Numbered from the stretch's first letter, positions 39,844 to 52,837 are shown. The stretch: DNA of 64,000 bases from a virus (IMGVR_UViG_3300042908_000811:1-64000), one strand, 5' to 3'. Notes: generated by a model from the sequence alone, not told the origin. Numbers and translations are program-made.

Positions 39844-40074
39844 ATGAACCTTACACCCGAACAGCGTATTGCCCTGACCCACCTGTACGTACAGCACAAG
39901 CTTGAGGTTCAGCAAGATTGGGCACCTAGTGAGCGTGATACACCCGAACAACTAGCAATTGATATCAATCACCGCCATCAGAATGAAAACAGCCCAAGAT
40001 TCACCGACGAGCAATTCCTTTCAATGTTAAAGGAATATGGCGCTCCAGTATACGAACGGTTCACGGCAGCATAG
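39844..40074 (+). CDS. small protein 76 aa
   Basis: ORF track. Confidence 0.5.
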   Translation: MNLTPEQRIALTHLYVQHKLEVQQDWAPSERDTPEQLAIDINHRHQNENSPRFTDEQFLSMLKEYGAPVYERFTAA

Positions 40075-40108
40075 GAAGTTTTTGACCATAGGAAATCACA
40101 GATTTCCG

Positions 40109-40185
40109 CTTTACTTCCTGATTCACTCCAAGTAGACTATCCCTATTGAACAAAAGGGCAATACCAGAAGCAACTGAGGTGATAT
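40109..40185 (+). promoter_or_regulatory. promoter/leader cassette copy 2 (variant)
   Basis: CTTTACTTCCT..GTAGACTATCCCTATTGAAC...GAGGTGATATATG. Confidence 0.55.
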
Positions 40186-41169
40186 ATGTTTGATTATAAT
40201 ATTCTTTCTCCAAATCGTCGTGCGTTCGTTGACACTGCGCTGGAAGTTTTCCCAGATTTGTCTACCACCATCACTTCAAAGCAAATCGACCAGGTTGTAG
40301 CGGCAAAAGGTATCTCATACCCACAATGGTTTATTGTAGAATCTAACAGGGAATCCCGTGGAGTATATCATTTCCCTACCAAAGTAGAAGTTCAAACCAT
40401 TACTGAAACTGATGAGGAAATCTCAATTCGTATTGCTGATACCTATGAATCTATGGAAGCGTTGGTATCTTCTGTGGCATCCAATACTGTAAACTCGTTG
40501 ATTATCGCTGGTGCTGCTGGTATTGGAAAGTCACATACTGTCAATAAGGTATTGACTGACATCAATTATGGATCGGAATATAACTTCACCATCCATAAAG
40601 GATACTTGCGTGCAACTCACTTATTCCGTATGCTTTGGGAAAATCGTCATTCTGGTATGACAATCGTTATTGATGATTGTGATGCTATATTTTCTGACGA
40701 AACTGCCTTAAATATTTTGAAAGCCGCATTGGAATTAAAGCCTGTCCGTAGGATTGGTTGGGGATCAGAAAAGGAATTTCTTGATGAAGACGGTGAAACT
40801 ATTCCGCGATATTTTGATTATGAAGGATCAATTATATTCCTGACAAATCTACCTATCCGCGAATTAATCGCTTCTGGCAATAAGAATGCTCCTCATTTGT
40901 CAGCATTAGAATCCCGTTCGTTAGTATTGGATATGAAGATCAAAACTCGCAGAGAATATTTGATCAAAATCAAACAAACTGTTAACGCTGGTATGTTGCG
41001 CGATAAAGGTTTCTCCAAGGCTGAAGAAACCCAAATCATGGATTATATTGAACAGCACAAGGAATCTTTTACTGAACTTTCATTAAGAATGGTAGAAAAG
41101 GTATCTGCGTTGTTCAAGGCAAATCCTTCTAATTGGGAAAAACTTGTTCGGGCAGTTTGTATGAAATAA
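40186..41169 (+). CDS. AAA/P-loop ATPase
   Basis: Walker A IIAGAAGIGKSHTV, Walker B MTIVIDDCDAIF. Confidence 0.55.
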   Translation: MFDYNILSPNRRAFVDTALEVFPDLSTTITSKQIDQVVAAKGISYPQWFIVESNRESRGVYHFPTKVEVQTITETDEEISIRIADTYESMEALVSSVASNTVNSLIIAGAAGIGKSHTVNKVLTDINYGSEYNFTIHKGYLRATHLFRMLWENRHSGMTIVIDDCDAIFSDETALNILKAALELKPVRRIGWGSEKEFLDEDGETIPRYFDYEGSIIFLTNLPIRELIASGNKNAPHLSALESRSLVLDMKIKTRREYLIKIKQTVNAGMLRDKGFSKAEETQIMDYIEQHKESFTELSLRMVEKVSALFKANPSNWEKLVRAVCMK

Positions 41170-41417: not shown

Positions 41418-41682
41418 AGGTACATTCACTTCTAATGTATATGCTTCAACAGAAAGCTCTGCATTAAGTATATTATTCAATGACTTAGGTTTCGTCACAA
41501 TTCATAATATAGAAATGTTATGACAAGGTTATTCGCTGCTGTATTGGTACTAGGTTCTTGTTGGAATCCTCATATCACCATCAATGTGCTGGAGAAAATG
41601 GTATATGGTATCAATGGATTCTACTCCACCATGATACTTGCTGCAGAGGAATCTGCAAGGAAGCAGAGGTAGGAAGTTCAGG

Positions 41683-41748
41683 CTTTACTTCCTACCAGAT
41701 TGAGGTATCCTATCCTTGTAGTCAGAAAAAACCAACTGGAGAATGAAA
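41683..41748 (+). promoter_or_regulatory. promoter/leader cassette copy (preceded by AGGAAGT forming a hairpin with ACTTCCT)
   Basis: GGCTTTACTTCCTACCAGATTGAGGTATCCTATCCTTGTAGTCAGAAAAAACCAACTGGAGAATGAAAATG. Confidence 0.6.
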
Positions 41749-41958
41749 ATGGCGAATATGTCCTACTGCAGATTTCAAAACACTTCTAATGATCTTCTGG
41801 ATTGCGTCAATACAATGCAGGACGAGGAAACTCTTCAGGACCTGGATTTGAGCGAGGAAGAATTGCGAGCAATGGTGCGCATGGTTAAGTTGTGCGGAAG
41901 GTTTGTTGAGGAGTACGAACGCCTGCAAAGTGCAGAAGTGTATGAGGAAGAGGAGTAA
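41749..41958 (+). CDS. small acidic protein about 69 aa
   Basis: ORF track 41743; consensus spacing favours the second ATG. Confidence 0.5.
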   Translation: MANMSYCRFQNTSNDLLDCVNTMQDEETLQDLDLSEEELRAMVRMVKLCGRFVEEYERLQSAEVYEEEE

Positions 41959-41959
41959 C

Positions 41960-42015
41960 CTTTACTTCCTGAACGAATCAGGTATCCTATAGTTGTAGTC
42001 AACAATATCTGGAGA
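41960..42015 (+). promoter_or_regulatory. promoter/leader cassette copy
   Basis: CCTTTACTTCCTGAACGAATCAGGTATCCTATAGTTGTAGTCAACAATATCTGGAGATTGATGATG. Confidence 0.6.
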
Positions 42016-42213
42016 TTGATGATGAACGAAATTCAAGACCTTTTGATTCGACTCTGGCATCGCGAAATCAGCGCAGATGATGTAGCAGATGAACTTTGCT
42101 ACAATGGACCTCAAGTTGATGAGTTCGAAGAAACCTTGCGGAAGGTTTGGAGGCGCGAAATCAGCGCCGACGATGGTTACGATGCCCTGCTTGAAGTCGA
42201 ACCAAACCTTTAG
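42016..42213 (+). CDS. small protein with internal duplication (WHREISADD / WRREISADD)
   Basis: ORF track. Confidence 0.5.
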   Translation: MMMNEIQDLLIRLWHREISADDVADELCYNGPQVDEFEETLRKVWRREISADDGYDALLEVEPNL

Positions 42214-42214
42214 A

Positions 42215-42276
42215 CTTTACTTCCTGTCTGATTGTAGTATCCTATCCTTGTAGTCAACAATATCTGGAGAACAACC
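42215..42276 (+). promoter_or_regulatory. promoter/leader cassette copy
   Basis: GACTTTACTTCCTGTCTGATTGTAGTATCCTATCCTTGTAGTCAACAATATCTGGAGAACAACCATG. Confidence 0.6.
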
Positions 42277-42516
42277 ATGAGCATTTCACTTTTCAAAACC
42301 CGCGAATTCACCAACAAACTTCTTGAAGCAGTTGATGAGGGGTACATTGATCCGCGTGATGCGCTTACTGCTGCCCTATCGTATATGTCAGAAGCAGAAG
42401 TCAAGGATATGTGCGCTGTCAATGAATTCTTTGCTTATGAGGAAGACGAGGAGGAAGAGGATGAAAGCGATCCCCTGGACGATTTCAACTATGTAGGATC
42501 CCGGCATCATTATTGA
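42277..42516 (+). CDS. small acidic protein (C-terminal EEDEEEEDESD)
   Basis: ORF track. Confidence 0.5.
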   Translation: MSISLFKTREFTNKLLEAVDEGYIDPRDALTAALSYMSEAEVKDMCAVNEFFAYEEDEEEEDESDPLDDFNYVGSRHHY

Positions 42517-42530
42517 TAGGAAGTCAGAGA

Positions 42531-42589
42531 CTTTACTTCCTGTCTGATTGTAGTATCCTATCCTTGTAGTCAATAACTGGAGAACGAAA
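42531..42589 (+). promoter_or_regulatory. promoter/leader cassette copy (AGGAAGT...ACTTCCT hairpin upstream)
   Basis: GACTTTACTTCCTGTCTGATTGTAGTATCCTATCCTTGTAGTCAATAACTGGAGAACGAAAATG. Confidence 0.6.
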
Positions 42590-42790
42590 ATGGACAAGGT
42601 TGAGCTTCGCAATCAATTGACGGCTGATATTGAACAGTTTCTTGCTAATGGAGGAGTAGTTGTAACTCAAACAGCACAGAAAGTAAAGGTGCGTCATCCT
42701 GTTACTGGACATCAAAAACTATTCTTTGGTCCAAAAGCGCCGCATAGATACCCTGCCTCTTCTTGGTCTTTTATTGATATGAAGAAATAA
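42590..42790 (+). CDS. small protein 66 aa; paralog of 49560-49820 (EQFLAxGG motif)
   Basis: LTADIEQFLANGGVVVTQTAQKVKV vs LSQSLEQFLAAGGTITTLPTKKVRT. Confidence 0.5.
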   Translation: MDKVELRNQLTADIEQFLANGGVVVTQTAQKVKVRHPVTGHQKLFFGPKAPHRYPASSWSFIDMKK

Positions 42791-42791
42791 T

Positions 42792-43118
42792 ATGAAAACC
42801 TTATTTGAACGCAAAGAAAATTGTCTGTTACTGATTGCTTATGCTTCATTAAAGAATTGGGAGGAATCAACTGATAAGGAGAATTTGTCTGCAGAGAAAG
42901 CCAGGATTGAACGTGTTATTGCCGATATCTTTACAAAGAACAAACTTGATGTAGATTATAATCAATTCGTTCTAGAGTTTGTAAAGGAACATGGTCGCGA
43001 GATTGTATATGGGAACGAATATACATATGACGTTTCTATCCCAGACGAATATACAGAATTGGATGTTAATGTGATGATTGACAAATATATTCGCAAGCAG
43101 AATGGCTCAAAGTATTGA
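42792..43118 (+). CDS. hypothetical protein 108 aa
   Basis: ORF track. Confidence 0.5.
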   Translation: MKTLFERKENCLLLIAYASLKNWEESTDKENLSAEKARIERVIADIFTKNKLDVDYNQFVLEFVKEHGREIVYGNEYTYDVSIPDEYTELDVNVMIDKYIRKQNGSKY

Positions 43119-43332
43119 TAGGAAGATAAATAATGGATGCGATATATTCTATTCTTATTCTTATCTGGATGCTCCTTCCATGAATGTTCCCTGAATCCAG
43201 GATTGAATTCTTTATTGGCAAACCCAGCAAAGAAGGTAACAAGCGTTGATGTTGGAGAGGTGGTATCTGATCCGTTGCATAATGTGTCAGCAGTTTTAAA
43301 GTGTCCACTGTAGGAAGTCAATAACAAAACCA

Positions 43333-43394
43333 CTTTACTTCCTATCCGATTGCGGTATCCTATCCTTGTAGTCAGACAAAACTGGAGAAAAACG
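43333..43394 (+). promoter_or_regulatory. promoter/leader cassette copy
   Basis: CACTTTACTTCCTATCCGATTGCGGTATCCTATCCTTGTAGTCAGACAAAACTGGAGAAAAACGATG. Confidence 0.6.
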
Positions 43395-43709
43395 ATGACC
43401 GAATATAGCATTGGCGCTGCCACACGTGCGAACGATCCTTGCGCTTATAACGTCCAGGGTGTTACCATCACCGCTGAGGAACGCGAAGCATTGCTGGATG
43501 CTTACGTTGCCCAACAACTCGAGATCCAACGCAAGTGGGGTAATCGGGAGACTGCTGAGGAAATCCGCGCTAACCTTGAGTTCCCACACGGCAACCCTGC
43601 CAAACCGAAGTGGGATGACGAAACTCTTCTCCGCGAAATGGTTCAGTACGGACTCGAAGTCCTGTTGAAGTTTATGGACGAAAGGGGAACTCCTTTACTT
43701 CCTGCTTGA
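43395..43709 (+). CDS. hypothetical protein 104 aa, GC-rich
   Basis: ATG at consensus spacing after GGAGAA; within track ORF 43350-43709. Confidence 0.5.
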   Translation: MTEYSIGAATRANDPCAYNVQGVTITAEEREALLDAYVAQQLEIQRKWGNRETAEEIRANLEFPHGNPAKPKWDDETLLREMVQYGLEVLLKFMDERGTPLLPA

Positions 43710-43754
43710 ATGTAGTATCCTAGAGTTGTAGTCAGACAAAACTGGAGAACTGAA
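43693..43754 (+). promoter_or_regulatory. promoter/leader cassette copy
   Basis: CCTTTACTTCCTGCTTGAATGTAGTATCCTAGAGTTGTAGTCAGACAAAACTGGAGAACTGAAATG. Confidence 0.6.
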
Positions 43755-44483
43755 ATGACAAAGAAACCTTCTGGATACATCATCTATCGCGGTCCTTCTC
43801 TTCTGGATGGCAAACCGATCGTTGTTGTAGCAATCACCAAGGAATCCAAGAACTCCAAGACTGGCAACATGATCCAGACCTACATCCTGGTTGACAACGG
43901 TGAAATGCCGGTTGCCAACTACCAGTCCCTTGCAGACGAATCTATCTGCGGTGAATGTAAGCATCGTCGTGGTAAGGGTGGTGCTTGCTACGTGAATGTT
44001 GGTCAGGGTCCAACGATTGTCACCAAAGGCATTGCTCGCGGAATCTATCCTTATGATCCTTCCGCTGCTGCCCGTGCTTGCGATAATCGCGCTGTTCGTC
44101 TTGGTACTTATGGCGATCCTGCTGCTGTTCCTGGGTATGTATGGGCAACTCTTCTATATGGTTCTAAATCCCACACGGGATATACCCATCAATGGAAGTC
44201 TGGCAAAGCCAACCACGTTCAGGAATGGTGTATGGCATCTGCTGACTCTGAGCAGGAACGTGCTGAAGCCAAGGCATTAGGCTGGCGCACCTTCCGCGTC
44301 CGTACTACTGAGGAAGACATTCTGAAGGGTGAATTCGTCTGCCCTGCTTCTGATGAGGGCAAGAAACGTATGCTTTGCGTTGATTGTACTGCTTGCTCTG
44401 GTGGGTTTAATGCTCGCAAAGGAGACCCTTGCATAATCGTGCACGGCACCCTCAAACGTCGTTTTCGCCTCGCGATTGCTTGA
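43755..44483 (+). CDS. Cys-rich hypothetical protein 242 aa with clearly higher GC and E. coli-like codon usage
   Basis: ORF track; ICGECKHRRGKGGACY and CVDCTACSGG cysteine clusters. Confidence 0.55.
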   Translation: MTKKPSGYIIYRGPSLLDGKPIVVVAITKESKNSKTGNMIQTYILVDNGEMPVANYQSLADESICGECKHRRGKGGACYVNVGQGPTIVTKGIARGIYPYDPSAAARACDNRAVRLGTYGDPAAVPGYVWATLLYGSKSHTGYTHQWKSGKANHVQEWCMASADSEQERAEAKALGWRTFRVRTTEEDILKGEFVCPASDEGKKRMLCVDCTACSGGFNARKGDPCIIVHGTLKRRFRLAIA

Positions 44484-44556
44484 TAAAATGTTGTAGGAGG
44501 TTAACTAAATCTAAATTGACTAAGTTTGTTTGATTCTTTTTTAATTAACATTTGAG

Positions 44557-44760
44557 GTGTATATGACTTATTCTGTAGTTCTTGATTCTTCTAATTCTTA
44601 CCTTGTTCCTTCTGATAATGGTATGTCTTTCACCAATGCTTGTATGGAAGTCATTAATTATACAATTGAGGCTGGTTACGATATTCAGCAAGAATTGTTT
44701 GAGACTTTGCTAAGCGAAGGTGAAGATTCAAGAGACACGTTTGGTCTGATTAAAGCATAA
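44557..44760 (+). CDS. small protein 67 aa (AT-rich; own TTGACT-type promoter at about 44500)
   Basis: ORF track. Confidence 0.45.
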   Translation: MYMTYSVVLDSSNSYLVPSDNGMSFTNACMEVINYTIEAGYDIQQELFETLLSEGEDSRDTFGLIKA

Positions 44761-44804
44761 TAATCTCCCGAATACATATTTCTATTTCTATCCAAGGAAA
44801 TAAT

Positions 44805-44999
44805 ATGTATTCAATCAAAGTCAACAATATGTTTGTGTCAAGGTATCTTTCTGCTTCTCAAAAGGTACAATTGACAACTGTAATGGATTACATCAAAATG
44901 TTCAAAACAGAGCAAGAGGCAATACAATTCAAGGATGAATTTTGTATACCAAAATACGGCATTGAGGTGGGAAGTGCAGAAGTTGTTACTGCTCCATAG
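44805..44999 (+). CDS. small protein 64 aa
   Basis: ORF track. Confidence 0.45.
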   Translation: MYSIKVNNMFVSRYLSASQKVQLTTVMDYIKMFKTEQEAIQFKDEFCIPKYGIEVGSAEVVTAP

Positions 45000-45002
45000 C
45001 AG

Positions 45003-45060
45003 CTTTACTTCCTACCCAATTGCGGTATCCTATTCTTGTAGTCGCTAATTGAGAACAAAG
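45003..45060 (+). promoter_or_regulatory. promoter/leader cassette copy
   Basis: GCTTTACTTCCTACCCAATTGCGGTATCCTATTCTTGTAGTCGCTAATTGAGAACAAAGATG. Confidence 0.55.
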
Positions 45061-45198
45061 ATGACAAAACAAGATCTCATTGATGAACTGTACCTTCAGC
45101 GTGATTGCGCCGTTTCCATTGAGGAATGGCAACATCTTACCTTACAGATCATGCGACTGGAACAGGAAGTTGAACTGGAAAACAGCTTTACTTCCTAA
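45061..45198 (+). CDS. small protein 45 aa
   Basis: manual ORF below track cut-off. Confidence 0.4.
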   Translation: MTKQDLIDELYLQRDCAVSIEEWQHLTLQIMRLEQEVELENSFTS

Positions 45199-45247
45199 CT
45201 GATTGTAGTATCCTATAGTTGTAGTCAATTTTAACTGGAGAATGAAA
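45186..45247 (+). promoter_or_regulatory. promoter/leader cassette copy (hairpin AGGAAGT..ACTTCCT)
   Basis: GCTTTACTTCCTAACTGATTGTAGTATCCTATAGTTGTAGTCAATTTTAACTGGAGAATGAAAATG. Confidence 0.6.
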
Positions 45248-45562
45248 ATGGGTTATCGTTCTGAAATCGTTATCGCCATCGATCCTACTGTATATAACGA
45301 ATGCCCTCCTGATGTAAAGGAAGCATTCGCGGAAATCTGGAGTGAACCTAGTCTTAATGAAGCAGAAAGGATTGTTTTTCATCACGATTGCATCAAATGG
45401 TATGATGTTTACCCTGTCGTTGCCACTATTGATAATTGGTTAAACTCGCTGGATGAAACTGAATATGGTTTGGTTGAATTGGGTGAAGACCTTGGTGATG
45501 TGAGAATGGAAGGTGAATATTGGACTTATGGGCTTGATTTCGTACGCAAGATTGACTTTTGA
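45248..45562 (+). CDS. hypothetical protein about 104 aa
   Basis: track ORF 45242; second ATG matches cassette spacing. Confidence 0.5.
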   Translation: MGYRSEIVIAIDPTVYNECPPDVKEAFAEIWSEPSLNEAERIVFHHDCIKWYDVYPVVATIDNWLNSLDETEYGLVELGEDLGDVRMEGEYWTYGLDFVRKIDF

Positions 45563-45570
45563 GGTATAAC

Positions 45571-45726
45571 ATGGGCAATTATCCAGACGTTGACGAACCA
45601 AACGAAGATTATGAAGATGAACCATATGATTATGATGACTCCATGGATGGGGAATTTGATTCAGCAATGACCTCAGTGGGGTGGGGTGAGGATGAATCAT
45701 ATAATCATTGGGCAGAGGAATTTTAA
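45571..45726 (+). CDS. very acidic 51-aa protein (MGNYPDVDEPNEDYEDEPYDYDD...)
   Basis: manual ORF; Asp/Glu/Tyr rich. Confidence 0.4.
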   Translation: MGNYPDVDEPNEDYEDEPYDYDDSMDGEFDSAMTSVGWGEDESYNHWAEEF

Positions 45727-45743
45727 GCACTGAGTTCTCCATG

Positions 45744-45798
45744 GGCAGGGTGTTCCACTCCAGGGAAACGACTACACCACCCTGCCCACTTTACTTCC
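45744..45798 (+). terminator. GC-rich hairpin (GGGCAGGGTG / CACCCTGCCC) running into the CTTTACTT -35 of the next cassette
   Basis: 10-bp inverted repeat followed by a T-rich tract. Confidence 0.5.
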
Positions 45799-45849
45799 TG
45801 CTTGAATGTAGTATCCTATAGTTGTAGTCAAAACCAACAGGAGATCATC
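45789..45849 (+). promoter_or_regulatory. promoter/leader cassette copy
   Basis: CACTTTACTTCCTGCTTGAATGTAGTATCCTATAGTTGTAGTCAAAACCAACAGGAGATCATCATG. Confidence 0.6.
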
Positions 45850-46062
45850 ATGAAACTGTTCAAAGTCAATGCCAACTCAGAGTATACCTTCGTCAAAGAA
45901 GTGTTTTCCTTTGTGGGAGCAACCAATGCGGTATATGCTGATGACTTCAAAGGCTTCTGGCTCCTGGAAGCTGGAGACAAGAAATTTGTCTTCACCGCAG
46001 CAGTAGAGGATGAGTGGTTGGAAGTTCATCGGGACACTTTACTTCCGCGTCCATTCAGGTAG
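45850..46062 (+). CDS. small protein 70 aa
   Basis: within track ORF 45802-46062. Confidence 0.5.
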   Translation: MKLFKVNANSEYTFVKEVFSFVGATNAVYADDFKGFWLLEAGDKKFVFTAAVEDEWLEVHRDTLLPRPFR

Positions 46063-46098
46063 AATAAACCTATCAAAGCAACTAACAGGAGAACAAAA
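46037..46098 (+). promoter_or_regulatory. degenerate cassette copy inside the 3' end of the previous ORF
   Basis: CACTTTACTTCCGCGTCCATTCAGGTAGAATAAACCTATCAAAGCAACTAACAGGAGAACAAAAATG. Confidence 0.45.
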
Positions 46099-46311
46099 AT
46101 GACCTCGATGTCTTATTGCATGATGGAGAACTCTTCTCTCGAAATGGCGCAGGTTGTAAACTACATGATCGAAGCAGACTCCTGGGAGGATATGGATTTC
46201 AATCAGTACGAAGAATCAGCAAAGTCTCATCTGTATGATCTGTGTAAGAAGTTTATCAAGCACTATGATCGCTTGGAAGAAAACGTCGAAGAGTTTGAAT
46301 TGGAGACTTGA
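46099..46311 (+). CDS. small acidic protein 70 aa
   Basis: ORF track. Confidence 0.5.
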   Translation: MTSMSYCMMENSSLEMAQVVNYMIEADSWEDMDFNQYEESAKSHLYDLCKKFIKHYDRLEENVEEFELET

Positions 46312-46370
46312 CTTCCGTCCTCGTCCAGGTATAATAACTCTGTAGTCAACAAACAACTGGAGAAACGAAC
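46307..46370 (+). promoter_or_regulatory. cassette copy with full consensus TTGACT-16-TATAAT
   Basis: CTTGACTTCCGTCCTCGTCCAGGTATAATAACTCTGTAGTCAACAAACAACTGGAGAAACGAACATG. Confidence 0.65.
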
Positions 46371-46823
46371 ATGATGCAAGCAGGAACTTATTACATCGGC
46401 GATCTAGCATACGTGATGCACCCTGAGTGGGAAGAATTCTGTTCAATCACTATCGACGGACATGATTGCCTGGATGGAGAATTCAATCTCTCTGATGGTC
46501 GCCGATTCGCTACCTACGGAACTGCATACGGTGACGGATCTTATCAATCCAGCACCAATGATACGCTATACGTTGACGCTGGACTAATCGGTTGCATTCG
46601 CATCGAGGATATCAGCGAAGATCTTACCGAAGACCAGATCCGTGATCTTGGTATGATCCACAATTTTGAGAAGGCATTCCACACCTCTGGCGGTCGCGGA
46701 GAAGCAAACTGGGATGGCGTGATCAAGTTTGGCGAAGTATCTGTAGAGACCGATCCCTATGTGGAAGAAGAGGAAGACGAATATGATTACGAAGAAGATT
46801 ATGACTATGATGGTCCAGCATAA
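46371..46823 (+). CDS. hypothetical 150 aa with extremely acidic C-terminal tail (YVEEEEDEYDYEEDYDYDGPA)
   Basis: ORF track. Confidence 0.5.
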   Translation: MMQAGTYYIGDLAYVMHPEWEEFCSITIDGHDCLDGEFNLSDGRRFATYGTAYGDGSYQSSTNDTLYVDAGLIGCIRIEDISEDLTEDQIRDLGMIHNFEKAFHTSGGRGEANWDGVIKFGEVSVETDPYVEEEEDEYDYEEDYDYDGPA

Positions 46824-46900
46824 CTGAGTTCACGGCAACGGCGAATGCTCTCCAGGCAGAGGACTCGTTCCTCGTTCGACTACACCCTTCGCCGTTGCCA

Positions 46901-46953
46901 CTTTACTTCCTGCTTGAATGTAGTATCCTATAGTTGTCAATTGGAGAACAACA
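46901..46953 (+). promoter_or_regulatory. cassette copy, preceded by 12-bp-stem inverted repeat GGCAACGGCGAA/TTCGCCGTTGCC
   Basis: CACTTTACTTCCTGCTTGAATGTAGTATCCTATAGTTGTCAATTGGAGAACAACAATG. Confidence 0.55.
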
Positions 46954-47088
46954 ATGGGTTACATCTTCTGCCTTGCTCTTATCTTCACTCTGAATCATCT
47001 TATCGTTGGTTCTGGGAAACGCTCCCCTCGCATCCCGAGGATTGTCAAATCTGGTCGGAAGTCTCATCACGGACTTCCGATTCTTTAG
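46954..47088 (+). CDS. 44-aa membrane/basic peptide (MGYIFCLALIFTLNHLIVGSGKRSPRIPR...)
   Basis: manual ORF below track cut-off. Confidence 0.4.
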   Translation: MGYIFCLALIFTLNHLIVGSGKRSPRIPRIVKSGRKSHHGLPIL

Positions 47089-47090
47089 GA

Positions 47091-47152
47091 CTTTACTTCC
47101 TCCCCCGCTGTAGTATCCTATACCTGTAGTCAACAATAACTGGAGAACAACA
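47091..47152 (+). promoter_or_regulatory. promoter/leader cassette copy
   Basis: GACTTTACTTCCTCCCCCGCTGTAGTATCCTATACCTGTAGTCAACAATAACTGGAGAACAACAATG. Confidence 0.6.
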
Positions 47153-47335
47153 ATGTATCCAACCCACAGAACTATATTCGGTCCATTCGTTTCTGACCTG
47201 AAGAAATACAACATCCCATACGTCTTGGTTGGGAAGAATGCTCATGGTCAAGGAATGTACGAAGTTCCGATTGATGTCATAGATATACTGAAAGACAAAT
47301 GCCCTCTCTATGTTGTAGGGAAAGGTTGGGTTTGA
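47153..47335 (+). CDS. small protein 60 aa
   Basis: ORF track. Confidence 0.5.
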   Translation: MYPTHRTIFGPFVSDLKKYNIPYVLVGKNAHGQGMYEVPIDVIDILKDKCPLYVVGKGWV

Positions 47336-47354
47336 CTTAACAGGATAAAAAACC

Positions 47355-47615
47355 ATGACCATAATTGATGACCTGATCAGTGTCACTACCTCCAACCAAG
47401 ATGGTTGGGCTTTGGCCGATGCCTACGAATACGAGAGGTCAGGACACGTAAACTCAGACCTGCAGCCATACCTTGATTGGTGGTATGGAGACAGGGACGA
47501 CCTTCCCACACCGAGCTTGGGTTCTTTGAAATACTTTGAAGAACTAACAAAGTCCGCGGAAGGCACTAAAACGAACGCTCTTTCAACAGGAGAACATCAT
47601 GAAAAAAGTATATGA
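47355..47615 (+). CDS. small protein 86 aa
   Basis: ORF track. Confidence 0.45.
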   Translation: MTIIDDLISVTTSNQDGWALADAYEYERSGHVNSDLQPYLDWWYGDRDDLPTPSLGSLKYFEELTKSAEGTKTNALSTGEHHEKSI

Positions 47616-47853
47616 TTTCTATGCTGATCCGGGACACGGTTGGCTCAAGGTTAAGTTAAGCGAATTAGTTAAACTCAATATCCTACATGAAATCAGCCAA
47701 TATTCATATATCAGAAAAGATGATGTATATCTGGAAGAGGATTGTGATTTAAGTGTTTTCATGAAAGCAAAAGGTATTGATATTAAATTTAGAGAACATC
47801 ATTCTAATAAAAGTTCTAAAATAAGAAATTATAATCGTCTGATGTTTGTATAA
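47599..47853 (+). CDS. small protein 84 aa (AT-rich)
   Basis: ORF track. Confidence 0.45.
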   Translation: MKKVYDFYADPGHGWLKVKLSELVKLNILHEISQYSYIRKDDVYLEEDCDLSVFMKAKGIDIKFREHHSNKSSKIRNYNRLMFV

Positions 47854-47944
47854 AAATTGTCTCGAAGTGCTTGACAAGGAGCAAAGATGCCCCTATGTGG
47901 TGGTACAGGATATTTCGGTCATCAAGCGCAGATCAATATCATTC

Positions 47945-48011
47945 TTTGACTTTACTTCCTTCCAATATATAGTATCCTATACCTGTAGTCAACAATAACT
48001 GGAGAAACGAA
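47945..48011 (+). promoter_or_regulatory. cassette copy (TTTGACTTTACTTCC: both -35 variants fused)
   Basis: CTTTGACTTTACTTCCTTCCAATATATAGTATCCTATACCTGTAGTCAACAATAACTGGAGAAACGAAATG. Confidence 0.6.
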
Positions 48012-48203
48012 ATGTCTTGGATCCTAGCCGTTGTATTCCTGAATGGTGAAGTTCTTGCAAATGACTTCAAAACCGAAGCAGAATGCACTCGCGAAATGCG
48101 ACTGACCATCCGTGCAATGGAAGCAGAAGGTGAGAAGTTCACTGAAGTAACCTGCACTCCTGGTATCGTTATCAGCGCGATTGATGATGAAGAAGAAGAA
48201 TGA
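48012..48203 (+). CDS. small protein 63 aa, hydrophobic N-terminus and acidic tail
   Basis: ORF track. Confidence 0.5.
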   Translation: MSWILAVVFLNGEVLANDFKTEAECTREMRLTIRAMEAEGEKFTEVTCTPGIVISAIDDEEEE

Positions 48204-48278
48204 TCTACCCTGCCGAAGCATAATGGATGTTCTGGAGATTGTCAACAAGGAAGAAAGGAATGCGACTGCTGATAGAGG

Positions 48279-48337
48279 CTTTACTTCCTATCAGATTGTA
48301 GTATCCTATAGTTGTAGTCACTAACTGGAGAAACGAA
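48279..48337 (+). promoter_or_regulatory. promoter/leader cassette copy
   Basis: GCTTTACTTCCTATCAGATTGTAGTATCCTATAGTTGTAGTCACTAACTGGAGAAACGAAATG. Confidence 0.6.
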
Positions 48338-48553
48338 ATGAACGTATACGAAATGCTTGATACTCTCTCTGGTCTCGCTTTGGAAAAGTCCAAACAAAGA
48401 ATGGGTGAACACAATTATGCATATGCCTTTGGAATGGTTGTTGCTGAACTCCAGACAGACCTTGACGAAATGGGGCTGACCAAGAAACAAATGAAAGTCC
48501 TTCATGATCGTATCGCCAAACTCCAATTACATGTAAACCAGGGGAGCAAATGA
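48338..48553 (+). CDS. small protein 71 aa
   Basis: ORF track. Confidence 0.5.
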   Translation: MNVYEMLDTLSGLALEKSKQRMGEHNYAYAFGMVVAELQTDLDEMGLTKKQMKVLHDRIAKLQLHVNQGSK

Positions 48554-48762
48554 TGGCATATTACAGCAATGATTTCTATACTAAAACCAATCCAAACTTT
48601 CAGGAGTTCATTACACAATTAGAGAATTTGTCGCGCAAGTTTGGTGTGGTAGTATACGGACACTTTGATCTTACAGACAACCCTGATGAGTTCAAGAATG
48701 TCGTGTATGACAGAGACATTAGTTCTAGCGATATCTGCGCAAGAGGTTACTGGAGCGAATAA
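48550..48762 (+). CDS. small protein 70 aa
   Basis: ORF track; ATGA overlap. Confidence 0.5.
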   Translation: MMAYYSNDFYTKTNPNFQEFITQLENLSRKFGVVVYGHFDLTDNPDEFKNVVYDRDISSSDICARGYWSE

Positions 48763-49040
48763 ATGCGATACACAAACGAAATTGTATACTTTTCATTTCT
48801 CTTAACAGTAACTGCATTTCTTTTCTTCGTATTACAATGAAATACTTTCTACTTCTAATCTCAATGGGAGCTTACTCTTATGTCTCAACGCAAGATTTCA
48901 ACGACCAATCCCGTAGCAAAGAATATGAGCAAGTTCAATCAATCGAAAGTGTATCGCGATAAGAAAAAGGATTATCAACGAAAGGAGAAGTATTCTTACT
49001 CCACCTCTATTGTTCAAGAATCTTACAAGTTTCCCGATAT

Positions 49041-49265
49041 ATGAAAATCTTAGAATGGGTGGCAACTCTGGTGACAATCATAGGAGCATTCCTCACTGCA
49101 TTTGATTATCACCCATTCAACCTCATATTCCTTAACCTTGGCAGTGTATTGTGGTTAACCTGGGCGATCCTGGATCATAAACTGTCTATTGCTCTAGTCA
49201 ATGGGGTAATGCTCCTCATCTACATAGCAGGAATGCTTCACCCTTTACTTCCTACTCTCCTGTAG
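49041..49265 (+). CDS. small integral membrane protein 74 aa
   Basis: ORF track; two hydrophobic helices. Confidence 0.5.
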   Translation: MKILEWVATLVTIIGAFLTAFDYHPFNLIFLNLGSVLWLTWAILDHKLSIALVNGVMLLIYIAGMLHPLLPTLL

Positions 49266-49304
49266 TATCCTATAGTTGTAGTCAAAACCAACTGGAGAAA
49301 CGAA
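49243..49304 (+). promoter_or_regulatory. promoter/leader cassette copy
   Basis: CCTTTACTTCCTACTCTCCTGTAGTATCCTATAGTTGTAGTCAAAACCAACTGGAGAAACGAAATG. Confidence 0.6.
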
Positions 49305-49502
49305 ATGACGAAAATGACGCTTGAGGATTATGTAAATTACATGGCAAATGCCGATAACATGTCAGATCTCGAAGCTCAACTTCCTGGCGACGATTTTCAT
49401 TCGCTGAAAAATGTGTATGCTCTTTGCGAAAAATTTTTAGACCATATGGATCGGTTGGATTATGCAGAAAAACACCCATGGGACTGGGACAAGGACGCTT
49501 GA
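49305..49502 (+). CDS. small protein 65 aa; near-identical inverted paralog of 6256-6444
   Basis: protein identity about 85 percent over 60 aa. Confidence 0.6.
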   Translation: MTKMTLEDYVNYMANADNMSDLEAQLPGDDFHSLKNVYALCEKFLDHMDRLDYAEKHPWDWDKDA

Positions 49503-49559
49503 CTTTTTCTGAGATTGTAGTATCCTATAGTTGTAGTCAAAACCAACTGGAGAACGAAA
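49498..49559 (+). promoter_or_regulatory. cassette copy with TTGACTTTTTCTGAG -35 (minus-block subtype)
   Basis: CTTGACTTTTTCTGAGATTGTAGTATCCTATAGTTGTAGTCAAAACCAACTGGAGAACGAAAATG. Confidence 0.6.
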
Positions 49560-49820
49560 ATGAACAAACAAGAAGTTCGTGAGTCCTTGTCTCAATCGCT
49601 TGAACAATTCCTTGCTGCTGGTGGTACAATCACCACTCTTCCAACAAAGAAAGTCAGAACCAAGAACACTGTGTCTTGTCGTTATCGTCGAGGGGTTGGC
49701 TCCAAGTCTGAACAATTCAAGGGTGCTGAACCACAACCTCTTCATTCCTGGTGCGTTTGGTCTCCCGATAGATTGAACAACGTCAACTATCGTCCAATGT
49801 ACTTCAGCAAGAAGCACTAA
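49560..49820 (+). CDS. small protein 86 aa; paralog of 42590-42790
   Basis: ORF track. Confidence 0.5.
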   Translation: MNKQEVRESLSQSLEQFLAAGGTITTLPTKKVRTKNTVSCRYRRGVGSKSEQFKGAEPQPLHSWCVWSPDRLNNVNYRPMYFSKKH

Positions 49821-49835
49821 TAAAGGAGAACAATC

Positions 49836-50159
49836 ATGGCTATCATCACTGTACACTTCGCTCCACTCTCAATGCGTCGCACTCTCTGCACCTCAGAGGC
49901 AGTAGAGAAGTTGGTCCAAGACACCTTTGGAGAATATACCTCACATGAACCATTCTACTCTCCATTGATTGGAGAGGAAGCAGCAGAGGATGTATTCGAC
50001 CTATCAAACAATCCGTCGCGAGAATTTGATCGCAAATTCGTCTTCAAAGACGCTCGCACAGTCAATGTTGGAGACGTCGTTGAGGTAGACTACATGGGTG
50101 TACCATCATTCTTCCTTTGTAAAGGAATTGGTTGGGCGAAGTTGGACTTTACTTCCTGA
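49836..50159 (+). CDS. hypothetical protein 107 aa
   Basis: ORF track; AGGAGAACAATCATG RBS. Confidence 0.5.
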   Translation: MAIITVHFAPLSMRRTLCTSEAVEKLVQDTFGEYTSHEPFYSPLIGEEAAEDVFDLSNNPSREFDRKFVFKDARTVNVGDVVEVDYMGVPSFFLCKGIGWAKLDFTS

Positions 50160-50208
50160 AGAGTTGCGGTATCCTATAGTTGTAGTCAAAACCAACCTGA
50201 GAACAACT
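50147..50208 (+). promoter_or_regulatory. cassette copy (SD variant ACCTGAGAA)
   Basis: GACTTTACTTCCTGAAGAGTTGCGGTATCCTATAGTTGTAGTCAAAACCAACCTGAGAACAACTATG. Confidence 0.55.
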
Positions 50209-50559
50209 ATGACCAAACAAGCCCTCAAAAGGCTCCTCAATAGCAACCTCGAAGTTAAGTTGTACAATGGTTGCTTCAACGTAGTCACTGCTAAAGCGGA
50301 ATTCTCCCGTTACTCTTGGGAACTCCGAGTCGAAGTGACCAATCAAGCACTTGCCTGGCAGTGTGGTGATAAGAGCGAAGTATCTCTTTGGTTGTGGCAA
50401 GGTAGCAGCGGCGTTCGAGTTGATCTTCCCGCAGAACTCAATGAACTTGTTGAGCAAATGAAGAAGGCTGGTCAAATGACTGATGAAGCTGCTCTCGAGC
50501 TATCTCGAAGCAACGCCAGACTCTTTGAAGAAGCAATGACCGAACTTGGTATGCGCTAA
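50209..50559 (+). CDS. hypothetical protein 116 aa
   Basis: within track ORF 50098-50559. Confidence 0.5.
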   Translation: MTKQALKRLLNSNLEVKLYNGCFNVVTAKAEFSRYSWELRVEVTNQALAWQCGDKSEVSLWLWQGSSGVRVDLPAELNELVEQMKKAGQMTDEAALELSRSNARLFEEAMTELGMR

Positions 50560-50622
50560 TTTACTTCCTGACGAATTGCGGTATCCTAGAGTTGTAGTCA
50601 AAACAAAAATGTAGAGGCGGAA
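50559..50622 (+). promoter_or_regulatory. cassette copy (variant leader)
   Basis: AATTTACTTCCTGACGAATTGCGGTATCCTAGAGTTGTAGTCAAAACAAAAATGTAGAGGCGGAAATG. Confidence 0.5.
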
Positions 50623-50892
50623 ATGTTAGACGAAACTTATATAGAAGCAATCAAAACCGTTAGCAAACCAGATTTTTCTGTCAGCATAGATCATAAGTTC
50701 TCCTATGACCTTGACAAGGACATAGGAGAACTACTGTGGACAATTATCGCAGATAACACTGATGAATTTAGCCTTGTCGCATTCCCAACCAAGGAGGAAG
50801 CTCTCGCATTCTGCGAAGAATGTGGTTGGAAGATTACCAGTGTGTCTCAGGATCGCACCCATTACTATCAGGAATGGTTTTTTGGAAAATGA
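50623..50892 (+). CDS. hypothetical protein 89 aa
   Basis: ORF track. Confidence 0.5.
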   Translation: MLDETYIEAIKTVSKPDFSVSIDHKFSYDLDKDIGELLWTIIADNTDEFSLVAFPTKEEALAFCEECGWKITSVSQDRTHYYQEWFFGK

Positions 50893-50904
50893 AAAAGCCG
50901 CTGA

Positions 50905-50966
50905 CTTTACTTCCTTCCAGATTGTAGTATCCTATAGTTGTAGTCAAAACCAACTCGAGAATGAAA
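50905..50966 (+). promoter_or_regulatory. promoter/leader cassette copy
   Basis: GACTTTACTTCCTTCCAGATTGTAGTATCCTATAGTTGTAGTCAAAACCAACTCGAGAATGAAAATG. Confidence 0.6.
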
Positions 50967-51143
50967 ATGACTTATGAAGTATATACTTGGAAGCTATCAG
51001 CGGATACTGATCCGGTATTAGTAGAACGGAAGAAGTTTACCAAATTTTTTGATGCTTGTGATTATCGGGAGTTGATGGAAGAAAAAGGGTATGAATGTCA
51101 TTTGTTCGATAATGAATCATTGAAAAATCTATATAAGAAGTAA
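50967..51143 (+). CDS. small protein about 58 aa
   Basis: track ORF 50961; second ATG fits cassette spacing. Confidence 0.45.
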   Translation: MTYEVYTWKLSADTDPVLVERKKFTKFFDACDYRELMEEKGYECHLFDNESLKNLYKK

Positions 51144-51148
51144 ATATT

Positions 51149-51304
51149 ATGAAAGTTTATGCTGTCTTCTACGTTGAATACATCGAACCCACAATGGATT
51201 GTTTCAATCACCTCGAGAAAATCTTTGATTCTGAAACAAAGGCAAAAGAGTATGTGGAACGCAAAGGTGGTGACTACATAATGAAAGAAATCACTGTAGA
51301 ATAG
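51149..51304 (+). CDS. MKVY-family small protein 51 aa (copy 1 of 4 in tandem)
   Basis: MKVYAVFYVEYIEPTMDCFNHLEKIFDSETKAKEYVERKGG; manual ORF. Confidence 0.45.
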   Translation: MKVYAVFYVEYIEPTMDCFNHLEKIFDSETKAKEYVERKGGDYIMKEITVE

Positions 51305-51314
51305 GAAAACAAAA

Positions 51315-51476
51315 ATGAAAGTCTTCATCGTAACAAAACAAGGATATGAAGAAACATTACTCCTTGGAGTATTTGCAACAAAAGAATTAGCACAAGAACA
51401 TATTGATTGGTGCTGCGAAGTATTTGATCACAAATCCCACTATGATATCGTTGAAGAAACTGTAATAGGAATATAA
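51315..51476 (+). CDS. MKVY-family small protein 53 aa (copy 2)
   Basis: MKVFIVTKQGYEETLLLGVFATKELAQEHI... Confidence 0.45.
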   Translation: MKVFIVTKQGYEETLLLGVFATKELAQEHIDWCCEVFDHKSHYDIVEETVIGI

Positions 51477-51649
51477 TGAAACAGAAATTTGTTGTTAATT
51501 GTTTCTACCGCGAATGCTTTGGTCCGCATACTGTATTCGAATTTGACACTATGGAAGAAGCCCTTGAATGCGAGATGCAGGAGGATCGCTCGACGAATAA
51601 CTGGGATAGCGTCCAACTTGATGTTGTTGACGTAGAATGCGGAGACTAA
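51476..51649 (+). CDS. small Cys-containing acidic protein 57 aa
   Basis: manual ORF, TAATG coupling. Confidence 0.4.
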   Translation: MKQKFVVNCFYRECFGPHTVFEFDTMEEALECEMQEDRSTNNWDSVQLDVVDVECGD

Positions 51650-51650
51650 A

Positions 51651-51854
51651 ATGAAAGTTTATCTGGTAAAGTATTTCGAAAGCGGTGAACCCGAAATTAT
51701 GGGTGTATATGCTTCAAAAGAATTAGCAGAAACCTATATTGATTTTCGTATGAATGATATGTTATTCTGGAAATCATTTGAAGAAAGGGAAGCAGAGAAA
51801 AAGTTTTTACGTCCTGATTTTTCAATCACTGAAATGGAATTGATATCAGAGTAA
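51651..51854 (+). CDS. MKVY-family small protein 67 aa (copy 3)
   Basis: MKVYLVKYFESGEPEIMGVYASKELAETYIDF... Confidence 0.5.
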   Translation: MKVYLVKYFESGEPEIMGVYASKELAETYIDFRMNDMLFWKSFEEREAEKKFLRPDFSITEMELISE

Positions 51855-51897
51855 CAGTTGAGGAGGAACTGAAATGAAATTCACTAATCTATAGAGA

Positions 51898-52308
51898 ATG
51901 AAAATGGCAGAAGTAACAAGAAATCGGTTAGGCAACGTAACCAACCCATATCAAGGTGACTTCAAGAAAGTCCTTTGTGTATGCAGTGCTGGGCTACTCA
52001 GATCACCAACGGCAGCTTGGGTATTATCGCGTGACCCTTGGAACTTCAATACCAGAGCAGTGGGTTACAGCGAAGAATATGCGTTGGTGGTTCTTGATGC
52101 TGTACAACTTGCTTGGGCAGATGAGGTAGTTGTGTTTGACAAAAGTCACCATAAAGCAGTCAAAAGATTACTTGAAGAGCATGGGTGGGAAAAGCCAGTT
52201 CACAACTTAAACGTACCCGATGAGTTCAGTTACCGTGAACAACCACTGGTAGATATGCTAACCGAGCGATTCAAGGAGCTTTATCCACCGAACAAACTAT
52301 CACAATGA
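51898..52308 (+). CDS. low-molecular-weight protein-tyrosine phosphatase / ArsC-like (CxxxxxR P-loop)
   Basis: KVLCVCSAGLLRSP matches the LMW-PTP V-C-x-G-x-x-x-R-S-P signature; the start may instead be the second ATG at 51904. Confidence 0.55.
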   Translation: MKMAEVTRNRLGNVTNPYQGDFKKVLCVCSAGLLRSPTAAWVLSRDPWNFNTRAVGYSEEYALVVLDAVQLAWADEVVVFDKSHHKAVKRLLEEHGWEKPVHNLNVPDEFSYREQPLVDMLTERFKELYPPNKLSQ

Positions 52309-52496
52309 TGTACCTTCTACTCCAAGAAACAACCAAATGGGACTTTCCAAGTAACATATACGTCGTAACCGAAAACAAACAACGCTGCGTTGGTTACTTC
52401 AAAAATGGATACGACATACCAGATATGTTCAAAAAACCAGTGTCGTTTGATACCAGATATAGAACGTTCAAAACTCTAGGGAAAATAGAAGGGTAA
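52305..52496 (+). CDS. small protein 63 aa
   Basis: ORF track. Confidence 0.45.
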   Translation: MMYLLLQETTKWDFPSNIYVVTENKQRCVGYFKNGYDIPDMFKKPVSFDTRYRTFKTLGKIEG

Positions 52497-52610
52497 TGGC
52501 TGAATGATGTATGTTGTAAGGTGGTAATGCACCCCCCCACCCCCTTTCGTAGATTGCTTAGCAAATTTCTCCAAAGAGATCTTCTTGTGCGGGTTCCCAT
52601 ATGCCAACTA

Positions 52611-52700: not shown

Positions 52701-52837
52701 ACACCCCCCTTTTTACAGTGATTGAAAATTATTCATCAATCGCAAAAATTTTTTCGCGAGGAGAAATACACGAAAAACCTTTGATTTTTCTATCGGAAGT
52801 CAAAGACTTCCTATTGCGAAAAGGGTTGATACATTTT

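Follow-up and report, generated by a model that had tools for sequence, protein, structure and literature searches.

Mobile promoter-early stem-loop (PeSL) cassettes are known from the T4-type phages RB49/phi1, T4/PST and KVP40/nt-1 (Arbiol et al. 2010, PMC2839356; Comeau et al. 2014, PMC4122927), in which a unit runs from the stop codon of the upstream gene, through a stem-loop and a sigma70-type -35/-10 promoter, to the Shine-Dalgarno (SD) sequence and the ATG of the following gene. Such units lie densely between small ORFans in hyperplastic regions, half or degraded copies occur, and the junctions of indels and replacements between close relatives fall inside the repeats, for example between the -10 and the SD. 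Here we describe a comparable array in IMGVR_UViG_3300042908_000811:1-64000, a viral sequence of 64,000 nucleotides (nt) that we analyzed over its whole length (the window). One block of 56-67 nt recurs 20 times on the plus strand between 41683 and 50969, preceded by two variants at 39778 and 40109, and the blocks are likely to be PeSL-type early promoter cassettes that double as recombination patches and shuffle the genes between them. The first-pass annotation had taken the blocks for a sigma70-type early promoter with a short leader and ribosome-binding site, forming PeSL-like mobile cassettes in the hyperplastic region of a T4-type phage, and this core reading is supported by the sequence, by the strains and by the relatives. 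The gene-shuffling principle has already been described in T4-type phages, and the locus is a well-documented example of it, not a new principle. What appears to be new is the block-wise conservation, which includes the putative transcript start GTAGTCA, together with the chimeric promoters and the GC-richer genes directly behind the cassettes.

About 22 cassettes had been announced for 41683-50966; 20 lie there, and the figure of 22 is reached only with the upstream variants at 39779 and 40110. The array packs 20 copies into 9.3 kb among open reading frames (ORFs) of 44-242 amino acids (aa), mostly without annotation, the size given earlier for the cassette-led genes of this range; the 327-aa gene behind copy 40110 stands outside it. 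The sequence TTTACTTCC occurs 22 times on the plus strand and not at all on the minus strand, and a 24-mer from the leader has five matches with at most three mismatches, versus none in 100 shuffles. Every copy terminates at the ATG of a small gene, is co-oriented with that gene and keeps a near-constant distance to the start codon, the SD and ATG following 52-76 nt downstream of the start of the -35. The stop codon of the preceding ORF falls in a range from 98 nt upstream to 24 nt downstream of the -35 start. Because the upstream ORF never extends to the -10 in any copy, the cassettes are intergenic and are not coding repeats, an outcome that the first-pass annotation had named as one that would undo its reading. 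A coding repeat, a transposon-like element and a promoter for a single-subunit RNA polymerase were considered and rejected on the grounds of where the stop codons lie, of an orientation that always agrees with that of the start codons, and of the two-part -35/-10 structure with its TAnnnT degeneracy.

The layout TT(T/G)ACT-16-TAnnnT is present in all 22 copies, with the -35 preceded by c, a spacer of 17 nt in copy 40110, and a -10 that is mostly TATCCT. Odd copies carry TAGACT, TAGAAT or TATAAT in the same register, or TTGACT replacing TTTACT; the perfect TTGACT-16-TATAAT reported for copy 46307 was found as described. Across the copies and the related phages introduced below, the -10 register is occupied by TATCCT, TATAAT, TAGAAT, TAGACT, TAAAAT, TACAAT, TATGAT or TATACT, and T-12, A-11 and T-7 are always kept. 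For comparison, the T4-type early promoter has a (G/C)TT(T/G)AC box at -35, with G/T alternation (PMC1524935), and the T4/PST PeSL promoter is TTTACW-N17-TAYWAT (PMC4122927).

When the 18 copies of the predominant type (family 1) were aligned in register, conservation proved to be block-wise. An invariant CTTTACTTCCT is followed by 5-7 variable positions, a semi-conserved GATTGTAG, an invariant GTATCCTAT, two variable positions, an invariant TTGTAGTCA, an A/C-rich stretch of variable length, CTGGAGAA, four or five positions that are mostly A, and the ATG. Over the 46-nt core as a whole, mean pairwise identity is 0.77, versus 0.50 in the variable stretch from CTTTACTTCCT to GTATCCTAT. The probable transcription start is the G of GTAGTCA, which lies 7 nt downstream of the -10 and would give transcripts beginning GUAGUCA. 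The predicted leaders are 18-29 nt long, contain 45% A, precede a GGAG SD and are less structured than shuffled versions (mean minimum free energy -3.2 vs -4.1). A continuous conserved leader of about 25 nt had been proposed; its blocks TTGTAGTCA and CTGGAGAA are indeed conserved, but the stretch between them varies in length.

Hairpins had also been described before many of the cassettes. That description is borne out, with ACTTCCT of the -35 region serving as 3' arm or CTTTACTT as U-tract, but a clear stem is present in only about 12 of the 22 copies, the others being weak or lacking one. GGAAGT, the complement of the ACTTCC after the -35, is found no more than 40 nt upstream of nine of the 22 cassettes (binomial P ~1e-14). 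ACTTCC(T) forms the 3' arm in copies 39779, 40110, 41684, 42532, 43334, 45004 and 45187, and three long GC-rich stems end directly before ACTTTACTT at copies 45790, 46902 and 47092. Two further elements may be degraded half-cassettes: a hairpin arm without promoter at 43113-43136 (TTGATAGGAAGATAAATAATG), and a -35 remnant at 47326-47345 (GGTTTGACTTAACAGG) after the gene at 47153-47335, where the relative L016 has a full cassette after the same gene end.

The comparison across phages that had been proposed was carried out, and it revealed cassette-bounded gain, loss and swapping of genes in both strains and relatives. Strains were compared on public metagenome contigs that are 94-100% identical to the window in the matching flanks; the metagenomes that yielded the near-identical contigs are from freshwater lakes. 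Of seven structural differences among these strains, five are bounded by cassettes. Strain L009 lacks exactly the gene at 42016-42215, between cassettes 41961 and 42216, with the junction in their common leader 23-mer TTGTAGTCAACAATATCTGGAGA. In L044 and L048 the gene at 49305-49502, flanked by cassettes 49244 and 49499, is missing, and the junction lies in a common 39-mer. L044 has four genes between cassettes 46902 and 47951 replaced by three others, a duplicated cassette at 50148 together with an additional 39-aa gene, a chimeric promoter in front of the gene at 48012 and, like L010 and L038, an extra 122-aa gene at 50560. Like the architecture of the blocks and their conservation pattern, these rearrangements in natural variants are direct observations. 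The crossover positions vary from case to case (leader 23-mer, 39-mer, spacer ATTGTAG, SD), and therefore fit homologous recombination between short repeats and speak against a site-specific system. Homology between the 49305-49502 gene and its paralog on the minus strand of the window starts at the SD and reaches the ATTGTAGTA spacer of the following promoter; the unit that moved therefore comprises SD, gene and next -35 box.

More distant relatives were reached through homologs of the protein encoded behind copy 40110, which resembles T4 NrdC.10: L016 (71% protein identity), L017/L018 (62%), L019 (59%) and L092 (58%). In all four relatives a dense array of small genes lies downstream of the NrdC.10-like gene, and each (L016, L017, L019 and L092) has its own homogeneous version of the cassette. 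L016 has three cassette sub-families, two of which correspond to the window's odd copies, 46038 and 46308; the L019 cassette, TTTACTTTCGGCCATGGATGGCCTATAAT, has a palindrome in the spacer that would place a stem-loop between -35 and -10; that of L017 is CGCTTGACATTTTTTT..TAGAATGTACCCATAGTCAGAAAGCAACC, and that of L092, AAAAcGCTTTACATCTG..TACAATTGTTCTTAAGTTG, has a GC hairpin behind it, within the leader. Common to all five phages are TTKAC, TAnnnT, GGAG and the layout, and the remainder is lineage-specific. Such lineage-specific, homogenized cassettes point to largely concerted evolution within each genome. Exact-motif scans of IMG/VR for the family-1 and L016-type cassettes returned only single chance matches, and a scan for the L019 cassette recovered only its own contig.

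Between the window and L016, the neighboring core (AAA) gene is 72% identical in nucleotide sequence, while four single genes are 95-98% identical, their neighbors are 68-79% identical, and gene order is shuffled. All four of these genes are cassette-led, and the ends of the shared blocks fall in the SD or leader and in the next -35. For the gene at 43395-43709, the high-identity block extends from the SD to the next CCTTTACTT, and the flanking promoters belong to different sub-families. These patterns indicate that diverged phages have recently exchanged single genes ready for expression.

These observations allow the array to be compared with the described PeSLs. It agrees with them in its promoter pattern, including a -35 TTTACW of the T4/PST type, in the boundaries of the unit (upstream stop to SD/ATG), in its hyperplastic location among small ORFans and in the junctions inside the repeats; stem-loops are present in part. 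Their position varies, being upstream of or overlapping the -35 in the window, between -35 and -10 in L019 and within the leader in L092, and these positions span sub-classes described for RB49/phi1 (PMC2839356). The AT-rich tract that RB49/phi1 have upstream of the -35 is absent. Other differences are the 16-nt spacer and the -10 TATCCT, several interchangeable promoter sub-families with chimeras among them, cargo that is GC-richer than the rest of the genome, and a description drawn from sequence, whereas promoter and terminator activity and the formation of mini-circles also belong to the PeSL definition. Leaders much longer than those of PeSLs had been claimed, which overstates a block-wise conservation, but homogeneity within the genome, including at the transcript start, is much higher here. 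The carrier is also different, being an uncultured freshwater phage whose CobS and CobT resemble those of cyano- and pelagimyophages. S-PM2 is without PeSLs (PMC4503421), one study used only generic promoter prediction (PMC7029224), and dense PeSLs have not previously been reported in this lineage (PMC4503421). The early promoters of T4-type phages (Miller 2003 consensus, used in Nolan et al. 2006, PMC1524935; reviewed in PMC2988021) share the (G/C)TT(T/G)AC -35 with its G/T alternation at the third T, the conserved A-11 and T-7, a consensus reaching beyond the two hexamers, and a location upstream of novel small ORFs and tRNA genes. Unlike them, the cassettes have no evident A-rich UP element or TGn extended -10, and their conservation runs into the transcribed region.

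We propose that each block would be a complete T4-type expression cassette, with an early promoter read by the host RNA polymerase carrying its primary sigma factor, and that the stem-loop preceding about half of the cassettes may insulate the cassette from the upstream transcript or end that transcript. Direct repeats of about 60 nt between almost every gene would serve as homology patches for the phage recombination machinery, and crossovers inside them could delete, insert, duplicate or replace single genes while the expression signals stay intact. The same exchanges would keep the cassettes of one genome alike by concerted evolution and, as in the PeSL mechanism, could pass single genes between diverged phages at co-infection. 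We infer the promoter, terminator and translation activities, the early timing and the recombination pathway from the sequence.

Several observations weigh against this proposal. A convincing stem-loop precedes only about half of the cassettes, and a terminator function of the AGGAAGT/ACTTCCT stems is doubtful because the U-tract does not follow them. The 25 nt upstream of the -35 have a mean GC of 0.45 versus a window average of 0.354, so that they form no AT-rich tract. TATCCT is a weak -10 under E. coli rules. In a scan with the E. coli consensus, which may not be that of the host, family 1 scores 8/12, below the cut-off, and a promoter/terminator scan on the same model overlooks most cassettes, its totals being no higher than for shuffles and thus uninformative; since the consensus misses family 1, the promoter reading rests on position, orientation and allowed variation. 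Two of the seven strain differences are not cassette-bounded: L014 has an in-gene deletion inside the array, and the alignment of L007 breaks at a 12-mer array (~52863-53010) just downstream of the cassettes, probably reflecting a change in 12-mer copy number. Finally, GTATCCTAT and TTGTAGTCA are invariant beyond what sigma70 needs while the spacer has diverged, and recombination alone does not explain this. Because these blocks are invariant amid a diverged spacer, and because (G/A)TAGTCA recurs at a distance of 6 nt downstream of the -10 in three or four of the five phages (the window, L016, L017 and once in L019), they are probably under selection of their own. Possible reasons are the choice of start site and promoter escape, a common regulator, or a target for control after transcription.

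It is conceivable, though unlikely, that the parts of the block beyond the sigma70 contacts (the ACTTCCT extension, GTATCCTAT, TTGTAGTCA and GGAG with its A-rich tail) are cis targets of a phage factor, either a repressor or modified polymerase that switches the early regulon, or a RegB-like endoribonuclease or translational repressor acting on the 5' leader; conservation would then be functional and not a by-product of recombination. The divergence of the adjacent spacer, by which unconstrained sites had time to change, and the recurrence of (G/A)TAGTCA would fit such a factor, as would the presence of TTGTAGT twice, 16 nt apart, flanking the -10 in family 1 and in the minus-strand family 2 described below. 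The SD region GGAGAACGAAA agrees with the RegB/S1 consensus GGAGRAYARAA in 10 of 11 nucleotides (9-10 of 11 in most cassettes; PMC1702504), but GGAG with a spacer rich in A is equally what a good ribosome-binding site looks like, and no RegB-family Pfam match was found in 26 mid-size ORFs of the window or among the island genes, in a view of the genome limited to 64 kb. The mechanism of T4 early-promoter shut-off is not known (PMC2988021), a further point in its favor, but the L092 and most of the L019 cassettes differ strongly after the -10, and no single element is common to the clade. Slightly less probable still is a bolder version, in which the AGGAAGT/ACTTCCT hairpin, GTATCCTAT and TTGTAGTCA are phage-factor sites for joint switch-off of the early regulon or for active excision and integration of cassettes. 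If that were true, the array would be an integron-like exchange system with promoters as recombination sites, linking diverged freshwater T4-type phages through a common pool of GC-richer genes.

We regard it as improbable that these are ordinary promoters, alike through recent serial duplication and without a special role in gene flow, whose rearrangements are those of any direct repeats. T4-type recombination can act on any direct repeats of 40-60 nt (discussed in PMC2839356), the scattered crossover points are what plain homologous recombination predicts, and the cassette sequences are lineage-specific. However, the genes behind the cassettes are mutually unrelated, a few paralog pairs excepted, and are thus not a duplicated gene block; the functional blocks are invariant while spacer positions have diverged; five phages whose core genes are 58-72% identical have retained the architecture; and every one of the four genes recently exchanged with L016 is cassette-led. 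Most improbable by far is that the repeats are dedicated site-specific recombination sites, comparable to integron attC/attI, or small selfish mobile elements, and not primarily promoters. The cassette-plus-gene layout does resemble integron cassettes (an analogy drawn in PMC2839356), and the inverted repeat AGGAAGT/ACTTCCT is conserved in many copies. Integron cassettes and lambdoid "morons" likewise consist of single genes that are added or removed as units and remain expressed. Here, however, there is no attC site, the island yielded no integrase or recombinase family, the junction positions differ, terminal inverted repeats and target duplications are absent, and every copy is co-oriented with a start codon at a fixed distance. 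Unlike in morons, the flanking regulatory repeats themselves supply the homology for recombination.

The genes behind the cassettes also differ in composition. Their mean GC is 0.44, versus 0.38 for island genes without a cassette of their own (Mann-Whitney P = 0.0016) and 0.34 for long ORFs elsewhere; GC of the island is 0.425 versus 0.336 for 1-39000, and third-position GC is about 0.45 in most cassette-led genes versus 0.23 in two AT-rich ORFs just upstream of the island. Two ORFs that had been estimated at about 50% GC, 43395-43709 and 43755-44483, were computed at 0.52 and 0.50. In every relative (L016, L019, L092 and L017), the array that follows the NrdC.10-like gene has a higher GC than the DNA preceding this gene, the step being 0.32 to 0.415 in L019, 0.37 to 0.43 in L092 and 0.27 to 0.31 in L017; it is therefore a property of the clade and not of one phage. 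The shift could reflect either a gene pool held in common with GC-richer phages or early genes tuned to the host tRNAs before the phage's own A/U-decoding tRNAs accumulate. Homologs of the 242-aa protein in Mycobacterium, Gordonia, Roseobacter and Caulobacter phages favor a shared pool. This Cys-rich protein (phrog_2554) also has homologs in Klebsiella and Yersinia phages, identity being 40-50% across all six phage groups, marking a widely travelled gene.

As had been noted, several products are very acidic (genes at 42277, 45571, 46371 and 48012, isoelectric point 4.1-4.2, 45571 not itself being cassette-led), and the short peptides from 46954 and 49041 are hydrophobic, as proposed for membrane peptides. 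Searches of about 30 island ORFs against PHROG and Pfam gave no function for nearly all of them. The paralogous basic proteins of 42590-42790 and 49560-49820 (36% identity) score 26.1 and 25.0 bits against a SutA RNA-polymerase-binding domain whose gathering score is 29.3, suggesting that they are possibly early RNA-polymerase-binding proteins; the 86-aa protein had no match when searched against the PDB with phmmer. The acidic 150-aa protein of 46371-46823 (isoelectric point 4.1) has a disordered, D/E/Y-rich tail and belongs to a family of 756 metagenomic proteins (phrog_20074). Its AlphaFold model (predicted local distance difference test score 86) has no Foldseek match in the PDB (best E 0.79), and therefore none to any solved anti-restriction or DNA-mimic structure. 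The anti-defense or DNA-mimic cargo that had been expected thus found no support, the acidic ORFs being without a functional match in Pfam or PHROG.

Table 1. Predicted promoter cassettes of the window with the genes they lead, and related features (coordinates in the window).
Feature (strand)	-35 start	Type	Gene	Stem or hairpin	Comparison or remark
39778-39846 (+)	39779	variant; TTTACT-16-TAGACT, ATCCCTACTGAAAGCAA leader, GGAG	76 aa, 39844-40074	upstream GGAAGT arms 39746, 39761 can pair with ACTTCC 39782-39787	
40109-40188 (+)	40110	variant; TTTACT-17-TAGACT	T4 NrdC.10-like AAA gene, 40186-41169	hairpin 40091-40107, then GCTTTACTT	
41683-41745 (+)	41684	family 1	71 aa, 41743-41958	TAGGAAGT (41671-41678)/ACTTCCTA	
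41960-42021 (+)	41961	family 1	64 aa, 42019-42213		left partner of L009 deletion
42215-42279 (+)	42216	family 1	79 aa, acidic, 42277-42516		right partner of L009 deletion, junction in shared TTGTAGTCAACAATATCTGGAGA
42531-42592 (+)	42532	family 1	66 aa, basic, 42590-42790	TAGGAAGT (42517-42524)/ACTTCCT	SutA-RBD-like, below threshold
43333-43397 (+)	43334	family 1	104 aa, 43395-43709 (GC 0.52)	TAGGAAGT (43311-43318)/ACTTCCTA	
43693-43757 (+)	43694	family 1	242 aa, 43755-44483 (GC 0.50, phrog_2554)		-35 box is right-hand end of ~97% block common with L016
45003-45063 (+)	45004	family 1, leader GTAGTCGCTAATTGAGAA	45 aa, 45061-45198	hairpin 44989-45002 plus CTTTACTT	
45186-45244 (+)	45187	family 1	106 aa, 45242-45562	AGGAAGT (45164-45170)/ACTTCCT	
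45743-45852 (+), cassette 45789-45852	45790	family 1	70 aa, 45850-46062	GC-rich GGGCAGGGTG (45743)/CACCCTGCCC (45778-45787)	own ACTTTACTT is U-tract of preceding stem
46037-46101 (+)	46038	sub-family B; TTTACT-16-TAGAAT, AAACCTATCAAAGCAA leader	70 aa, 46099-46311		type dominant in L016
46307-46373 (+)	46308	sub-family A; TTGACT-16-TATAAT, AACTCTGTAGTCAA	150 aa, acidic, 46371-46823		near-identical copy before L016 ortholog of the gene
46834-46956 (+)	46902	family 1, shortened leader	44 aa, hydrophobic/basic peptide, 46954-47088	long GC-rich GGCAACGGCGAA (46834)/TTCGCCGTTGCC (46888-46899)	left end of four-gene segment replaced in L044
47054-47155 (+), cassette 47091-47155	47092	family 1	60 aa, 47153-47335	GTCGGAAGTC/GACTTCCGAT (47054-47081) plus TCTTT	
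47950-48014 (+)	47951	family 1	63 aa, acidic, 48012-48203		upstream half swapped in L044 for TTGACTTCC..TATAAT half (chimera)
48279-48340 (+)	48280	family 1	71 aa, 48338-48553		
49243-49307 (+)	49244	family 1	65 aa, 49305-49502		left partner of L044/L048 deletion
49498-49562 (+)	49499	chimeric; family-2 -35 half (GCTTGACTTTTTCTGAGATTGTAG) joined to family-1 -10 and leader	86 aa, 49560-49820		right partner of L044 deletion
50147-50211 (+)	50148	family 1; SD CTGAGAA	116 aa, 50209-50559		extra 39-aa gene and duplicated cassette in L044
50559-50625 (+)	50560	family 1, divergent leader	89 aa, 50623-50892		extra 122-aa gene inserted in L010, L044, L038
50905-50969 (+)	50906	family 1	58/60 aa, 50961/50967-51143		last array copy
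6170-21699 (-)	~6260, 10233, 12156, 17254, 19205, 19422, 21699	family 2; GCTTGACTTTTTCTG-N3-ATTGTAG-TAAAAT/TACAAT/TATGAT-AGTCTTGTGGTT..GGAGA..ATG			
6236-6464 (-)			paralog of 49305-49502 (88.7% nt identity)		homology from SD to ATTGTAGTA spacer of next promoter

The same type of promoter is found outside the array. A loose pattern (TT[TG]AC[TA], 16-17 nt, TAnnnT, then SD and ATG) has 45 sites in the window, 42 of which are co-oriented with the local genes, which suggests that the cassette architecture is the general promoter type of this phage. The minus-strand family with TAAAAT/TACAAT and AGTCTTGTGGTT that had been noticed in 1-24 kb (family 2) is real, with seven clear copies. About 20 more promoters of the form cTT(T/G)ACTTTTT-17-TAnnnT stand before genes on both strands across 1-39000 and 51000-64000, one of them in the tRNA array at 55746; the promoters outside the families have in common only the extended -35, cTT(T/G)ACTTTTT.

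The window has a G+C content of about one third and carries 23 tRNA genes and a two-piece transfer-messenger RNA (tmRNA), and its genes run leftward below and rightward above about 35 kb. Recognizable genes include CobS, a CobT-like protein whose best matches are in cyano- and pelagimyophages (~32% identity), two RNA ligases, an SPFH protein, a homing-endonuclease-like ORF and the homolog of T4 NrdC.10, an AAA protein that adjoins the cassette island and has matches in 1307 phage records, T4-likes dominating. No structural or replication core genes are present within the 64 kb, and a megablast search of 50,697 deposited phage genomes found no close relative of the island. The window is most likely a non-structural, hyperplastic part of a large uncultured phage of the T4 superfamily.

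Other features were observed in the window. The tmRNA at 29584-29989 (-) is of the two-piece (permuted) alphaproteobacterial type (Rfam RF01849/RF04321) with the tag ANDSKFALAA, and one is also present in L093 at 5756-6129. Among 185,579 species genomes, the tag has an exact match only in the betaproteobacterium Roseateles depolymerans, which has an ordinary one-piece tmRNA. Alpha-type two-piece tmRNAs occur in related marine myophages irrespective of host, non-alphaproteobacterial hosts included (PMC9004378); given this spread across hosts and the sole, betaproteobacterial tag match, an alphaproteobacterial host was not accepted from the tmRNA type. The non-coding region 39414-39778, directly upstream of the first cassette, contains about five repeats of CGCATAAGTAAT (39541-39645), with a 31-mer present in two identical copies, as well as three GC hairpins (GGGGAAC..GTTCCCC, GGGTCATACGACCC and GGGGATG..CATCCCC), and could hold iterons, an origin or a regulatory region. 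Directly downstream of the island are perfect or near-perfect tandem arrays of a 30-mer (2.9 copies, 52613-52699) and of the 12-mer GAGAATCTTTTG (~16 copies, 52850-53039). A 69-nt coding repeat extends over about 1.35 kb at 13685-15034 (-), across several ORFs of about 147 aa (repeat proteins), and the homing-endonuclease-like ORF at 4640-5554 (+), on the strand opposite to its neighbors, has internal repeats of 63/126 nt at 4929-5297.

Cassette-led gene shuffling at this locus would extend the PeSL mechanism beyond a few T4-like phages of enterobacteria and Vibrio that are in culture, to a freshwater lineage that is abundant but uncultured. The evidence comes from natural populations, where co-occurring strains have the same gene slots empty, filled or replaced. 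The locus offers a clean system for studying how large phages acquire and test small early genes. It would also be suited to asking why cassettes remain similar within a genome as lineages drift apart, and what function the conserved transcript start or the GC-rich composition of the cassette-led genes may have.

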